From positions 207,005 to 271,004 of the forward strand of contig KV454013.1 of assembly GCA_001661245.1 (NCBI GenBank): 64,000 bases of DNA. Reading direction: 5' to 3'. How positions within the stretch are numbered: the first letter of the stretch is position 1; every line of letters starts with the position of its first letter. The DNA comes from Pachysolen tannophilus NRRL Y-2460 (taxonomy: Eukaryota). The position numbers and the translations under genes were made by a program. Below, one piece after another: positions 4,343-35,296 of this stretch. The notes under the pieces are model-generated. The model saw only the letters and a list, made by a program, of their open reading frames with translations. It made no database searches and had not been told where the DNA came from.

Positions 4343-4942
4343 NNNNNNNNNNNNNNNNNNNNNNNNNNNNNNNNNNNNNNNNNNNNNNNNNNNNNNNNNN
4401 NNNNNNNNNNNNNNNNNNNNNNNNNNNNNNNNNNNNNNNNNNNNNNNNNNNNNNNNNNNNNNNNNNNNNNNNNNNNNNNNNNNNNNNNNNNNNNNNNNNN
4501 NNNNNNNNNNNNNNNNNNNNNNNNNNNNNNNNNNNNNNNNNNNNNNNNNNNNNNNNNNNNNNNNNNNNNNNNNNNNNNNNNNNNNNNNNNNNNNNNNNNN
4601 NNNNNNNNNNNNNNNNNNNNNNNNNNNNNNNNNNNNNNNNNNNNNNNNNNNNNNNNNNNNNNNNNNNNNNNNNNNNNNNNNNNNNNNNNNNNNNNNNNNN
4701 NNNNNNNNNNNNNNNNNNNNNNNNNNNNNNNNNNNNNNNNNNNNNNNNNNNNNNNNNNNNNNNNNNNNNNNNNNNNNNNNNNNNNNNNNNNNNNNNNNNN
4801 NNNNNNNNNNNNNNNNNNNNNNNNNNNNNNNNNNNNNNNNNNNNNNNNNNNNNNNNNNNNNNNNNNNNNNNNNNNNNNNNNNNNNNNNNNNNNNNNNNNN
4901 NNNNNNNNNNNNNNNNNNNNNNNNNNNNNNNNNNNNNNNNNN
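4343..4942. other. Assembly gap (N run)
   Basis: ~600 N. Confidence 1.
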
Positions 4943-18902: not shown

Positions 18903-21391
18903 CTAACTTGAATTTTGAACAACTAATCTTGCCAAATGTTGGAAAAAAGTTTTTAAAGACACATCTTCTGTATGAACAACGGTACCTGCTCCAACATCGT
19001 TCGAAGGAATATAACCACCGATATTTCCACCACCTACGGCATAATTCTGGTCATTTTCTGAAGGATTTAATTTCGAATACAAAAATCTAGCTTGTGATTT
19101 ACCTTCATCTGTGGTAACATATCTTGGTAATGGGAATCTATCAGCAATTAAATTGGCAGCTTCTTCTTTTGGCATTTCAAACATCTCATAAACGTTTGAA
19201 TAAGTTTCTCTATCCAAATTTGAATCTCTCCATTCAGCTGCTGTGGAACCGTAATATATGACTATATAGAAGAAAGCATCTAATAATAAGACTCTATCTT
19301 TTTTCAAAGATGCAGAATCTAACAAGACAGGTTCTGGTTCTCCAGATTCAGCAGAATACGATGTTAAAGTTGGTTGGATCATGACCAAAGAATCGTTAAT
19401 GTTTGTTCTTAATAATGTGTGGTGGTAAAAAGCGGTTTCATCAGGGGAACAATTGAAAACTTGTAAAAATTGAGATCTTCTTAAATGATAAATAAATTGT
19501 GGTAATAAAGAAAATTTATTTGTCAATCTAAAAGAATTTGGATCATTTTTAGAATAATCTCCAAATACTGAACATAATTTAACCAATGTTTTATCAATCC
19601 ATCTAAGTAAATCTGAATATTCACCTCCATTTTCTAATTTATGAACAATCATTCTTGCTAATAATACTGCTGCAGCTTCTTGATCAAAAGTATGTGTTAA
19701 TTCTGCACTATTTGTTGTTGGTCTTTTCAAAGTTGTGATTCTTATTCTCCATGAACCATTTGTATGCCTATAAGTTGTTTGGAATTGAATTGTGACATCA
19801 GGAACAGATGAATTTCTTTGATCTATAGATGGAACTGTTTGCATATCAAAGAAAATTCCATAAGTATGCCTTGGTGATAATGAATTTAATTTCCATTTCT
19901 TTGTAAAACCATCACCAATTTGAACATCTGCAATATTTTCACCATCTTCTTTACAAGACATTACATGTCCAATAATACCTGCAACTTTTAATTTTTGAGA
20001 AGTTAATACTTCTAATTCTCCACCTAAATAATTTATAGGATAACCTTCTGGATCTTTAGCAAATACTTCAAAAAATGAATTTTTAAAAATTGAAGTTTGG
20101 AAAGAATCTGTAACTACCAATACACCTCCAGTTAAATTTGCTAATGATCTCATTTCATAAATACCAACTTGATCATAACAACCAGCAAAGATATCTACAG
20201 AATAAATTGAAGTTGAACCAGGATCATAATTTTTATCCTTTATTTCTTTTCTAACACCAGTACCTTTTATAGCAATTTTTTTATAAAATGAAACTGCTTT
20301 TTTATAATGTTTTGCAGTTAATCTATCAATATCATTATGTGATCTAATTGGTTCTTTTAATTCAGTACCAACAATCATACCAGGACCATATGTACATGGA
20401 CCACCTGCAAATAAACTAATTTTTGCAGCACATTGAATAAAAGAACCTTCAATTAAACTTGAAGCAATTGAAATAGCAGCACCTGTTACTCTAATAGCTC
20501 TTTGACCTGGTTTAATAACCCATTTTGAAGCTTCTAAATTTTCAATAGTTTTCGTTATTTGAAATTCAGCATCACTATCATTTAAAGGTAATAAGAAACG
20601 ATTAATTGTTGTAAGTCCTGCAGGTCCAGCAATACTTGGAGAATTAAATTGATCAATCCAAGATTTTTGACAATTATTTGAAATTTTTAATTGTTTTTGT
20701 ACATCTCTTGTATCATATTCTTTACCACCATTAAATACATATTTTTTGAAACAAATATCAGAACTTAATTCATGAACATTGACTACAGAATCAAAAGTGA
20801 TTAATCCAAATAAACTTCCAGGTGGATGTAATGATAATGAAGTAATTAATACATCTTTTAAAGCTTGTAAATCTTCAGGTTCTTGACATAAATCAACAAC
20901 ATATAAAAAAACAGGAGGAGGAGGAACTTGTTGTCTTTGTGAAACATATTCAATTGTCGATGATGCTGGATTCAATTCAATTGGTAATTGGGTCTGTGTT
21001 AAATTCGAATAATTTGTAGGAAGTTGATTTCTCAATTGACAAATTGAACATGTCCAAAGTTTTGCAACCACATCAATTGGATTAAAAGGATTCAATACAG
21101 CACGACACTTGCGACACATAACTGGATCATAATTCGCAACAGGTAAATCTTCTCTTGCATTTAAAGGTGTATATAAACATCCAACTGGCATAGCAGCATT
21201 TTCAGCTTCAGATCTAGTCACAATTGAGTTTTATTAATTATTTTTATTATTATTCTTTAACTACTAACACTGTTTCTTTTTTTTTTTTTTTTTTGTTTTT
21301 TGTTTTTGTTAGGATTATTATGATATTGAAGAAGTGGATGGTGTTAGGTTCAATTGGAATTCTTTTCCTTCATTTCATTAATACATACCAT
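18903..21391 (-). CDS. SEC23: Divergent Sec23 paralog (COPII); 5' end interrupted by inverted segment as assembled
   Basis: PVGCLYTPL, Zn finger [43 protein letters not shown] 21391 directly followed by GTATGT. Confidence 0.9.
21222..21369 (+). other. Inverted segment carrying SEC23 intron branch point, 3' splice site and exon codons [19 protein letters not shown]
   Basis: Plus strand TACTAAC 21262-21268, poly-T tract, AG ending 21312, then 57 nt encoding the Sec23 N-terminal motif, opposite to the gene strand. Confidence 0.93.
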
Positions 21392-21775
21392 TTTCAATAT
21401 AGAAAAACAAACAATTGTTTTAAAAAAATGTTCAAGTATTTAATTAACAATAAATATATAATATATATATATATATATTATATATAATACATATACATAG
21501 ATATCTATATATATATATGGATATTAGGAGGCCTGCTATCTATCTATCAATCTATCAATCTATACGATAAATCGACTCAGATGCTATACTATTAATCCAC
21601 CTACCTATATTAAAACAATATCTTATTATATTGATTATTTGATTAATTAATTGTATATATATTTTTTGATTTGATTTGGACACTTCACCTTTAAGGAAAA
21701 AAAGCCAAAAAAAAATCAAAAAAAAAAAAATTAAAAAAAATTGTTTGCAAAAAATAAGTGACTCGTAACCGTACT

Positions 21776-21813
21776 AAACAAGAGTAATTAAACAAGAGTA
21801 ATTGAACAAGAGT
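21776..21813. repeat. ~2.7 copies of 14-bp tandem repeat (T)AAACAAGAGTAAT
   Basis: taaacaagagtaat taaacaagagtaat tgaacaagagtt. Confidence 0.8.
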
Positions 21814-22846
21814 TCTTTTTCAACTAAGAGAGCATTGTGGGTTATAAGTAGACGATGTTAGTTTTTTTTTTTTTTCAATTATTACACTTTGTTAGGTGTT
21901 GAAGTAATTGTAAATTAAGTATTGTATTCTGGATTGATATTTATTTATCTATATTTCCAAAAAAATGGTTAGTAACTGTTACAGGTTACTTAAAGGTTAC
22001 ATGTTACGGTTTACGGCGGTAAAGTATTCTTCTTTATTAGATTATAGTTAATTTAAATCTATTGAAATCTATCACTAAACCAGCTCATCGCTATGATATT
22101 AAAATGTGAAAGATCGATCAATCATATTTTTTTTTCTAACTCTATTGCGGTTAAACAGCATAGAATCACGTTTATTATTGTGGCATGGGTACTATTTATT
22201 ACTTTAATAATAATACCTTAACTAAAAAATTTTTTTTATCTAGATTATGGCTCGCTTAGTGAATTAATACATACAATACATACAATACATACATACCTAA
22301 TGGCGATAAGAGAATTTCTCTTTTTTTTTTTTTCACTTTTTGGTGGGCAATTTCTCTTATTAATCCAATGGGTAAAAAAATGCTTTAAAAATGTGTTTTG
22401 GTTTCATTTTTCATTTTTTCTTTTTTTTTGGCGCTAAACACTGTTTATTCACTGCTGGAATTATTTTTCCGGTATGTTCAGTTGCAGATAAGGTGTCTTC
22501 ATACAGAAACCTACATATACATGAATAAATCTCTAATCATATCGTATCTTCGTCCCCTGATAGAAATTGATATATATTTGGTTCGGCAATTAGGTACATT
22601 GACTCCGTATCAGAGAATGATTGGCTTTGTTCTTTGATTTTCTGTTTTTTCTGTTTTTTTTTTTTTATCTTTGATCTTTTTGTTACATCTATATAAATGT
22701 GTGGCATATGCCTTGAGGTTTAAAGAAATAAATATTAAAAAGTATTTCAATTACTTTTTTTCACCAACTTTATCTTTTTTTTTAAGACCACTGGTATACC
22801 ACTGGTATTGTTTGATTGGGTACAAGTTTTTTTTTTCTATTTGAAG

Positions 22847-24565
22847 ATGGGGTTTATAAGTTTTGTGGAAAAATTGAAGGTTAAACCTTCAGAGACTGCA
22901 ACAATCAATATTATGACAAATCCTGATTTGTTACCTATGCCTGCAGAAAGACGTATATGGGGTTGGTTTGGGTTTCTTTTTTATTGGTTAATCAGTAAAT
23001 GTCTTATTTCTACTTGGACAAGTGCAAATTCTTTATTATCTTTAGGATTTAATGTTGGTGAAATTATGGGGATTATAATTATAAGTAATGTTATAGTTGT
23101 TGTTCTTTCTTTACTGAATGGTCAAATAGGTTCAGATTATTATATTGGTTATACAGTTGCTACTCGTATAATTTTTGGTATTCATGGTTCTTATTTTGGA
23201 GTGGCTATAAGAACTATTTTAAGTATTGTTTGGTTTGCTTCTCAATCATGGTTAGGTGGTTTATGTGTTTGTTGTGTTCTTTCTTCTTGGTCAAAAAGTT
23301 TTCTTTATATGGAAAATACTTTCCCAGATAGTGTTCATTTTACTTCTCAAGAATTAGTTGGATTTGTTATATTTCAACTTTTATGTTTACCTTTAATTTT
23401 AATTAAACCTGAAAAATTGAAACCACATATTGTTAGTTCTTCATTAGTAACTTTAGCTGCAATGCTTGGTATAATAATTGCTGCAACAAAGGCAAATGGA
23501 GGTACAGGTCCTTTAATGACTTCAAAAACTACTATTAGTGGATCTACTTATTCTTGGAATTGGGTTTATGGTATTGTAAGTCAATATGGTAGTATTGCTG
23601 CTGGTGTTACAAATATGGCCGATTATACAAGGTTTAGTGAAAAAAAATATTCTCCTTATCCTGGTACTATTATTAGTTGGTTCACTTTAGGTGTTGTAAT
23701 TCCATTAATGGGGTTAATAACTCTGAGTGCCATTGAAGGACGTTATGGTGTTACTTATTGGAAACCAAATGATATTATGAATTTATGGTTGGAAGATAAT
23801 TATACTCCAGCAGTTCGTGCAGGTGTTTTCTTTGCCTCCATGGCATTTGTAAGTTCTCAATTGGTATATAACGTCATGGGTAATGCTATTCCAGGTGGAA
23901 TGGATATGTCTGGTCTTTGTCCTCAATTTATCAATATTCGTAGAGGTGCTTATATTACTGCCTTACTTTCATGGGTTATTCAACCATGGGATTTCTATAA
24001 TACTTCATCAACTTTTGTCACTGTTATGAGTTCTTTTTCAGTCTTTATGACTCCATTGATTGCTTGTTGGATTTGTGATTATTTCATTATTAGAAAAAGA
24101 AAATTAAAATTATCAGATTTATACAGTTTAGAAGAAGGTGGAGAATTTTGGTATTGGAAAGGTCTTAATTTAAGAGGACTTTTAGCATGGGCTTGTTCTT
24201 CAGCACCAGGTATTGCTGGATTAGTTAACCAAGCAAATACAGATCTTCCAATATCAGAAGGAGCAAAACATTTTTATGATGGTAATTTATTCTTTGGTTT
24301 TGTAATTGCATTTTTCGTTTATTATGTTTCAAATTTGATATTCCCAATGAAAAAATTAGATGAACTTGATCAAGTAGATTATTTCAAAATATATACACCT
24401 GAACAAATTCAACAAAAGGGATTGATCAGTTACGAAGAATACAAAGCAGGCGTTCTCCCACAAGAAGATGATTCTGTTGAAAGTGGTTCTGCAAGTGGAA
24501 GTAAAGAAATTACTCAAATAGAGTACGAACTTACAGGTGATAAAACTGCTACTGTAGAAGTTTAA
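22847..24565 (+). CDS. NCS1 nucleobase/thiamine permease (Thi7/Nrt1-like)
   Basis: NPDLLP.P.ERR.WGW, GGMDMSGLCPQFINIRRGA, QPW.FYN.SSTF.TVMSSF; multiple TM helices. Confidence 0.9.
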   Translation: MGFISFVEKLKVKPSETATINIMTNPDLLPMPAERRIWGWFGFLFYWLISKCLISTWTSANSLLSLGFNVGEIMGIIIISNVIVVVLSLLNGQIGSDYYIGYTVATRIIFGIHGSYFGVAIRTILSIVWFASQSWLGGLCVCCVLSSWSKSFLYMENTFPDSVHFTSQELVGFVIFQLLCLPLILIKPEKLKPHIVSSSLVTLAAMLGIIIAATKANGGTGPLMTSKTTISGSTYSWNWVYGIVSQYGSIAAGVTNMADYTRFSEKKYSPYPGTIISWFTLGVVIPLMGLITLSAIEGRYGVTYWKPNDIMNLWLEDNYTPAVRAGVFFASMAFVSSQLVYNVMGNAIPGGMDMSGLCPQFINIRRGAYITALLSWVIQPWDFYNTSSTFVTVMSSFSVFMTPLIACWICDYFIIRKRKLKLSDLYSLEEGGEFWYWKGLNLRGLLAWACSSAPGIAGLVNQANTDLPISEGAKHFYDGNLFFGFVIAFFVYYVSNLIFPMKKLDELDQVDYFKIYTPEQIQQKGLISYEEYKAGVLPQEDDSVESGSASGSKEITQIEYELTGDKTATVEV

Positions 24566-28036: not shown

Positions 28037-28534
28037 ATGCCTCCAAAGTTAGATCCAACTGAAGTTAAATACTTGTACTTGAGAGCTGTTGGTGGTGAAG
28101 TTGGTGCTTCATCTGCCTTGGCTCCAAAAATTGGTCCATTAGGTTTATCACCAAAGAAGGTTGGTGAAGATATTGCAAAGGCAACAAAGAACTTCAAAGG
28201 TATCAAGGTCACTGTTCAATTGAAGATCCAAAACAGACAAGCTGAGTGTTCTGTTGTTCCAGCTGCCTCATCTTTGGTTATTACAGCTTTAAAAGAACCA
28301 CCAAGAGATAGAAAGAAGGAAAAAAATGTTAAACATAGTGGTAATATTCCATTGGAAGAAATTTATGAAATTGCTAGACAGATGAGAGAAAAATCTTTTG
28401 GTAAAACTTTAGCTTCGGTTACTAAAGAAATTTTAGGTACTGCTCAATCTGTTGGTTGTCGTGTTGAAGGTAAAAACCCACATGCTATTATTGAAGCCAT
28501 TGATGCTGGTGAAATTGATGTTCCAGAAAACTAA
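28037..28534 (+). CDS. RPL12: 60S ribosomal protein L12 (uL11)
   Basis: [49 protein letters not shown]. Confidence 0.99.
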
Positions 28535-30112: not shown

Positions 30113-30614
30113 TATAGACTTTTTATACAGTTTTTTTAAGACTTTTTTTTTAAAAACAAAAAATAATGTAATTTACTACATTTTTTGAATAAAAAAACTT
30201 TGACTTCTTCATTATAAATTCATAAAATTTCAAAAATTAAAATATCCAACTTGTATATAATATAAATATATATAAACATACAAGAATTCAATTACCATAT
30301 TACCTAAAAATTATATTTAAAAAAAAAAAAAANAAAAAAAATAAACCGATGTATATGATGTGCATTATTAGATCAATAAAATATTAAGTATAAAACAAGA
30401 TAACCATTCCAAAATATTAAAATTAAAATTAAAAGAAAAAAAAAAAAAAAAAAGTAGAGCAGATTAATTAAAACAACCAGATAATTAAAAAAAAAAATTC
30501 AAAAATCAAAAACAAACACCTATTATCAACTTAGAAACCAATTACTAGAAGAATTTTTAGCATTAGCAAAATTATTTAACAAATCATCGTTATTACTAAT
30601 CCCAGCATCTTTTT

Positions 30615-34528: not shown

Positions 34529-35122
34529 NNNNNNNNNNNNNNNNNNNNNNNNNNNNNNNNNNNNNNNNNNNNNNNNNNNNNNNNNNNNNNNNNNNNNNNN
34601 NNNNNNNNNNNNNNNNNNNNNNNNNNNNNNNNNNNNNNNNNNNNNNNNNNNNNNNNNNNNNNNNNNNNNNNNNNNNNNNNNNNNNNNNNNNNNNNNNNNN
34701 NNNNNNNNNNNNNNNNNNNNNNNNNNNNNNNNNNNNNNNNNNNNNNNNNNNNNNNNNNNNNNNNNNNNNNNNNNNNNNNNNNNNNNNNNNNNNNNNNNNN
34801 NNNNNNNNNNNNNNNNNNNNNNNNNNNNNNNNNNNNNNNNNNNNNNNNNNNNNNNNNNNNNNNNNNNNNNNNNNNNNNNNNNNNNNNNNNNNNNNNNNNN
34901 NNNNNNNNNNNNNNNNNNNNNNNNNNNNNNNNNNNNNNNNNNNNNNNNNNNNNNNNNNNNNNNNNNNNNNNNNNNNNNNNNNNNNNNNNNNNNNNNNNNN
35001 NNNNNNNNNNNNNNNNNNNNNNNNNNNNNNNNNNNNNNNNNNNNNNNNNNNNNNNNNNNNNNNNNNNNNNNNNNNNNNNNNNNNNNNNNNNNNNNNNNNN
35101 NNNNNNNNNNNNNNNNNNNNNN
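34529..35122. other. Assembly gap (N run)
   Basis: ~600 N. Confidence 1.
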
Positions 35123-35296
35123 NTATAATAAGTTCAAGAAAAAAAAAGAAATAAAAAATAAAAATTTAGAAAATAATAATGAAAAAAAAAAAAAAAAAAA
35201 CAAACAACAACCAACAATTTACATAAAAAATCATAACCCATCTATTCTTCTCTTTGCTTTTTTTCTAGTTTTGCGTCTTTCTATAATCATTTATGC

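Follow-up and report, generated by a model that had tools for sequence, protein, structure and literature searches.

The SEC23 gene of Pachysolen tannophilus is interrupted, in its public sequence, by a 148-bp block that stands reverse-complemented with respect to the rest of the gene. The block lies at positions 21222-21369 of the window (the whole 64-kb stretch of DNA analysed), and carries the 3′ part of an intron together with codons 2-20. We lean towards the view that the flip is an error in the sequence record, the block having been wrongly oriented in a draft scaffold.

The SEC23 locus as assembled

The window consists of AT-rich yeast DNA (approximately 25-34% G+C per 2-kb block) with ordinary housekeeping genes. 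On its minus strand, a frame of 772 codons is open below position 21221. About 20 residues are absent from the front of this frame; one plus 19 are encoded nearby, the 19 on the opposite strand. The locus is made up as follows:

21391-21389, minus strand: SEC23 start codon ATG, the whole of exon 1 (read from the sequence)
21388-21383, minus strand: 5′ splice site GTATGT (read from the sequence)
21370-21382, minus strand: 13 intron bases 3′ of the donor, still in the orientation of the gene
21222-21369, plus strand: 148-bp block, reverse-complemented relative to the gene (scripted flip, tblastn and comparison of the ends)
21222-21312, plus strand: 3′ part of the intron, on the wrong strand (motif reading)
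21262-21268, plus strand (wrong strand): branch point TACTAAC
21277-21294, plus strand (wrong strand): T18 run
21310-21312, plus strand (wrong strand): acceptor TAG
21313-21369, plus strand: Sec23 codons 2-20 (19 sense codons), on the wrong strand (tblastn and alignment)
18903-21221, minus strand: remaining coding sequence, codons 21-792 and stop, uninterrupted, with the five Sec23 domains
21189-21191, minus strand: first in-frame ATG of the remaining frame, at which the public 762-aa model begins

Owing to 1 bp of complementarity between its ends, the block could equally be delimited as 21223-21368. The order GTATGT, TACTAAC, YAG on one strand is broken as assembled, with the donor on the minus strand and both the branch point and the acceptor on the plus strand. 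Inspection by eye of the minus strand 3′ of the donor found no acceptor that would join the ATG in frame to the body of the gene. The original prediction had described this layout, a minus-strand ATG and GTATGT with no usable acceptor facing TACTAAC, a T-run, TAG and codons on the plus strand, and every element is where it had been placed.

Reading from ATG 21391 gives 13 codons followed by TGA. Five ATGs precede the one at 21191, at 21391, 21386, 21378, 21373 and 21199, and the frame upstream of ATG 21191 remains open for 10 codons, ending exactly at the junction with the block.

Restoration of the gene by reverse-complementing the block

A script that reverse-complements 21222-21369 produces a 110-nt intron, with its motifs in order and 44 nt between branch point and acceptor, leading into a 792-codon frame whose single stop is terminal. 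The prediction that the flip would yield a canonical intron and an in-frame N-terminus is thus borne out. Other introns of the same pattern in the window measure 103-242 nt.

The two parts of the protein were located independently of the splice signals by a six-frame tblastn search of the whole 64-kb window with the Ogataea Sec23 protein (P0004). Residues 3-21 of this query match only plus-strand positions 21313-21369 (14/19 identical, E 2.4e-5), and residues 22-783 match minus-strand positions 21221-18909 in one segment at 73% identity. Consistently, the match to the solved Sec23 chain 1m2o_A sets residue 2 of the minus-strand frame opposite residue 22 of that chain. The conserved N-terminal segment of Sec23 is present and intact, on the strand opposite to the body, and comes into line only after the flip.

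The original prediction had also proposed a comparison with orthologues, and these support the collinear form. Twenty-three of 134 proteins were taken into the junction alignment, the 23rd of which (P0002) is itself a gene call short at its 5′ end. Aligned with each of the 16 full-length members of the clade described below, and with six conserved-type Sec23 proteins, the flipped reading crosses the junction gap-free, and the coding junction is exact to the base, zero residues being gained or lost relative to the 16 relatives. Six columns within the block (E8, G12, R14, W17, N18 and P21, Ogataea numbering), defined as invariant from an alignment of 30 Sec23 proteins, are all kept in the flipped piece. 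In L001, a metagenome relative that is 66% identical, the gene is intronless and collinear, with Ogataea residues 1-783 matching its DNA in one segment. Judged by the gap-free protein alignments and the collinear L001 DNA, the block has the opposite orientation to that found in every relative, and the collinear form is ancestral. By the tblastn matches and these comparisons, the split of the N-terminal codons onto the plus strand exceeds chance.

Identity and lineage of the gene

SEC23 encodes the inner-coat subunit of COPII that activates the Sar1 GTPase, and is essential in S. cerevisiae. The 772-aa frame scores above the cut-offs of all five Sec23 Pfam families (zinc finger, trunk, beta-sandwich, helical and gelsolin), and its residues 2-769 match solved Sec23 chains with an E value of 1.9e-211. 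Among the best 120 of 889 protein matches, 19 proteins share 60-74% identity with the window protein, itself not counted, and every other protein is at most 49% identical. Nine of these 19 are named, all of them Pichiaceae-type: Kuraishia, Ogataea, two Candida, two Brettanomyces, Pichia, Komagataella and Martiniozyma. A midpoint-rooted tree was built from 113 of the best 120 proteins, the seven outside 700-830 aa being left out. In this tree the window protein falls in a clade of 19, on a long branch. Identity between clade members and other fungal Sec23 proteins is 44-50%, compared with 52-78% for those others among themselves. A core COPII subunit therefore seems to be unusually fast-evolving in Pichiaceae-type yeasts (window positions 18903-21391; P0001-P0020).

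The Komagataella member of the clade (P0015) is UniProt C4R8D5, with which the window protein shares 65-66% identity over its whole length. Table S2 of PMC12120847 lists C4R8D5 as SEC23, with a star that we take as the mark of essential genes, and C4QVY3 as SHL23. The window protein thus falls in the same clade as SEC23 of Komagataella (Pichia pastoris), and differs from SHL23 of that yeast in grouping with C4R8D5 instead. A nonessential paralogue of the SHL23 type was considered and set aside, the clade's Komagataella member being C4R8D5 and not C4QVY3 by the accessions of that table.

The conserved type of Sec23 was searched for with the Babjeviella protein (P0048). The best 120 of the 1634 matches reach down to 58% identity and span many yeast orders; most are unnamed, and none of these 120 carries the name of a Pichiaceae genus. 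The presence of C4R8D5 in the clade, together with this absence of Pichiaceae-named conserved-type proteins among the best 120 of 1634, makes the gene look like the main, fast-evolving SEC23 of its lineage. The same two points speak against a diverged extra copy of SEC23, and the label of a dispensable SEC23 paralogue, under which the original prediction had placed the gene, is not upheld by either of them.

A second Sec23 homologue of Komagataella, SHL23, is described in PMC3814151 as localised at ER exit sites and nonessential. PMC12120847, by its account of twelve essential genes in the set studied, counts SHL23 among the essential genes of Komagataella, so the two sources conflict on this point. 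Since PMC12120847 calls SHL23 essential, the division of roles between SEC23 and SHL23 in the clade is not clear-cut. By analogy with its relatives, Pachysolen tannophilus probably also requires SEC23.

Consequence for the gene product

With the ATG at 21391 leading only to the early TGA, the product from ATG 21191 is the one left to the gene, as had been predicted. Its translation is identical to the 762-aa protein recorded for Pachysolen tannophilus in NCBI and UniRef, which has 30 residues fewer than the collinear reading. The cluster of this protein has one member, from one contig of 1,751,653 bases. No independent call of the Pachysolen SEC23 showing the N-terminus was found in the protein collection, in which the best other match is 74% identical (best 120 of 889). 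An annotator can readily overlook a first exon of one codon, so the 762-aa public model fits both a flip carried by the record and a missed exon. The closest relative, P0002 (Logan source, 74% identical), is a 761-aa call beginning immediately ahead of the corresponding internal methionine; this call, too, lacks the true 5′ end of its gene.

An AlphaFold2 model of the Ogataea orthologue predicts a helix at residues 4-11, strands at 13-15 and 19-21, and a helix at 24-28. The mean pLDDT of the model is 73.7, and the N-terminal block has means of 86 and 79. According to this model, ordered residues including the six invariant columns would be lost from a product starting at ATG 21191. The stop after 13 codons, the five upstream ATGs and the loss of ordered N-terminal residues indicate that the gene as written is probably null or very weak.

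The arrangement could instead be real, old and functional, giving an N-terminally shortened Sec23 from ATG 21191 with the flipped piece as a relic. The frame from 21191 is open and equals the public model, as this would require. A relic, however, would have decayed, and here 14 of 19 identities, six invariant columns and perfect intron signals remain. In addition, the open frame above ATG 21191 extends precisely as far as the junction, and five upstream ATGs stand in the way of initiation there. We consider a shortened functional gene very improbable indeed.

The ends of the block

The ends of the block are complementary over 1 bp on the inside (21222 A and 21369 T) and 0 bp on the outside; the original prediction had likewise given 1 bp. 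For comparison, 100,000 random intervals of 100-200 bp were drawn from the window. Of these, 71% have 0 bp of complementarity outside and 91% have at most 1 bp inside. As 0 bp outside with 1 bp inside is the commonest random outcome, the ends of the block look arbitrarily placed. Of 120 inverted pairs in 20900-21700, the 25 longest include none that links one block end to the other; these 25 lie in AT-rich low-complexity DNA upstream. Inverted repeats of at least 3 nt, the criterion for template switching or microhomology-mediated break-induced replication (MMBIR), neither flank nor overlap the ends.

These ends bear directly on the idea of a programmed invertible element whose flips would alternately supply SEC23 with its splice acceptor and first codons and withhold them. 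The geometry is suggestive, in that the flip moves the acceptor and the codons together and both states are clean. As in the site-specific inversion switches Hin/Gin/Cin, FimB/FimE and FLP of the 2-micron plasmid, the orientation of a segment decides the expression of a gene. Those systems depend on a recombinase and on inverted recombination sites bounding the segment on either side. Unlike them, the SEC23 block has no recombination sites at its ends, and no recombinase, integrase or transposase family was found by Pfam in the 29 other ORFs of at least 150 aa across the 64-kb window. There is also no match to an Rfam family in 20000-23000, the protein is collinear in 16/16 full-length relatives, and so is the DNA of the one relative compared. 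We know of no such inversion switch for a nuclear yeast housekeeping gene. From the random-like ends (1 bp) and the lack of a recombinase in the 29 other ORFs, a programmed switch appears very unlikely, which agrees with the doubt already voiced in the original prediction, and we give it next to no credence.

Origin of the flip

Two explanations carry most of the weight: an error in the record and a real, recent inversion. In the latter, a one-off and very recent micro-inversion would have inactivated or crippled SEC23 in the sequenced culture. The DNA would have broken at two points 148 bp apart, and the piece would have been rejoined in reverse by end joining without loss. The culture would have survived through heterozygosity, through a second copy or SHL23-type homologue, or through sufficient product from ATG 21191. 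Several observations are consistent with such an event. Both junctions stand in the assembled scaffold and as such would normally be supported by reads, the public model has the shortened 762-aa form, and the absence of decay fits a very young event. The fast evolution of Sec23 in the clade may mean that its duties are shared, and Komagataella has a second Sec23 homologue localised at ER exit sites (PMC3814151).

The closest natural parallel known to us is the set of primate microinversions analysed by Potapova, Kondrashov and Mirkin (2022), whose account in PMC8755829 gives 59/59 human-chimpanzee and 9/9 chimpanzee-bonobo cases as flanked by inverted repeats. All 68 of these well-defined microinversions are 17-33 nt long, with inverted repeats of 3-75 nt, and are ascribed there to template switching or MMBIR. 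Like them, the SEC23 block is an in-place reverse-complemented segment with unchanged flanks and a copy that is precise as judged at the coding junction. It differs from them in its length of 148 bp and in its complementarity of 0 bp outside and 1 bp inside. A microhomology of 1 bp with no flanking inverted repeats, when all 68 primate cases of 17-33 nt had such repeats (PMC8755829), argues against a real lesion.

Several further points stand against it. The coding junction shows no lost base; SEC23 is conserved and probably essential; and the N-terminal residues that would be missing are predicted to be ordered and hold invariant columns. Loss-free rejoining is uncommon for end joining. We regard a real micro-inversion as a serious possibility, though one that falls short of probable. 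A biological flip would be a one-off micro-inversion with loss of function, unusual in its lack of repeats. It is decidedly improbable that the flip is real with SEC23 lost or toggled, whether as a repeat-free reversible inversion or as a null tolerated since an SHL23-type homologue took over the COPII role. A real event would amount to an unusually clean, repeat-free 148-bp inversion disabling a core secretion gene, and would raise the question of whether a second Sec23 homologue carries the essential function in these yeasts.

The reading that we favour, an error in the record, would leave SEC23 collinear in the living yeast: an ATG, a 110-nt intron (GTATGT, TACTAAC, TAG) and then 791 codons. 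The flip would have been introduced during assembly, gap closing, finishing or later data handling, and the 762-aa public protein would then be short of its true first 30 residues. We infer from the following that the flip is absent from cells. The gene shows no decay, with the 772-codon body open and 73% identical to Ogataea, and the flipped piece keeping its invariant residues, branch point and acceptor. The scaffold has the gaps of a draft, namely N runs at 4343-4942 (600 bases) and 34529-35123 (595 bases), and single Ns inside two poly-A runs at 30333 and 34519. The undecayed frame, the blunt ends and the gapped scaffold favour an error over a real lesion, as do the probable essentiality of the gene and the base-exact coding junction.

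Local inversion errors in draft assemblies usually arise between inverted repeats or beside gaps. The SEC23 block resembles them as a short misoriented piece in an otherwise correct scaffold with gaps and ambiguous bases. It departs from the usual pattern in having neither inverted repeats nor gaps at its junctions, and no concrete route to the error presents itself. No routine assembly error known to us would produce so clean an in-place flip where the ends lack inverted repeats. It also counts against an error that an assembler would presumably need reads across both junctions. The 762-aa model is likewise the annotation expected if the public record carries the flip, although it would also be expected if the one-codon exon had been missed.

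Of seven sequencing runs found, five, from two studies, contain 91-94% of the sampled words of 19800-22800, a share compatible with either presence or absence of the words at the junctions; no RNA run was found to contain the stretch. The share is 0.94 in four runs of one sample and 0.91 in the run from the second study. Of the 304 sampled words, about 6 by estimate would cross a junction; nearby low-complexity DNA could explain the missing share.

Should the flip prove to be an error, 30 N-terminal residues are missing from the public SEC23 protein, and the scaffold should be corrected at the block. Clean flips in draft scaffolds would then warrant a check of the reads before any biological interpretation.

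Other observations in the window

Another intron-like pattern lies in the intergenic DNA between SEC23 and the permease gene. On the minus strand, TACTAAC (21968) and TAG come after tandem repeats of the GTATGTATT type within 22296-21949. The pattern is not counted as part of SEC23, and is probably due to chance or a 5′ UTR intron.

CTG codons are rare in the window, numbering 65 of 13,548 in the 30 ORFs of at least 150 aa, with none in SEC23. Several of them are clustered in low-complexity stretches.

Some fungal gene models fuse Sec23 and ribosomal L11 domains (P0092, P0093, P0101, P0111, P0112 and P0114; five from Fusarium and one from Bachmanniomyces). The window has an L11-domain gene at 28037-28534, approximately 6.6 kb from SEC23. 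The fusions may reflect an old neighbourhood of the two genes or merged gene models.
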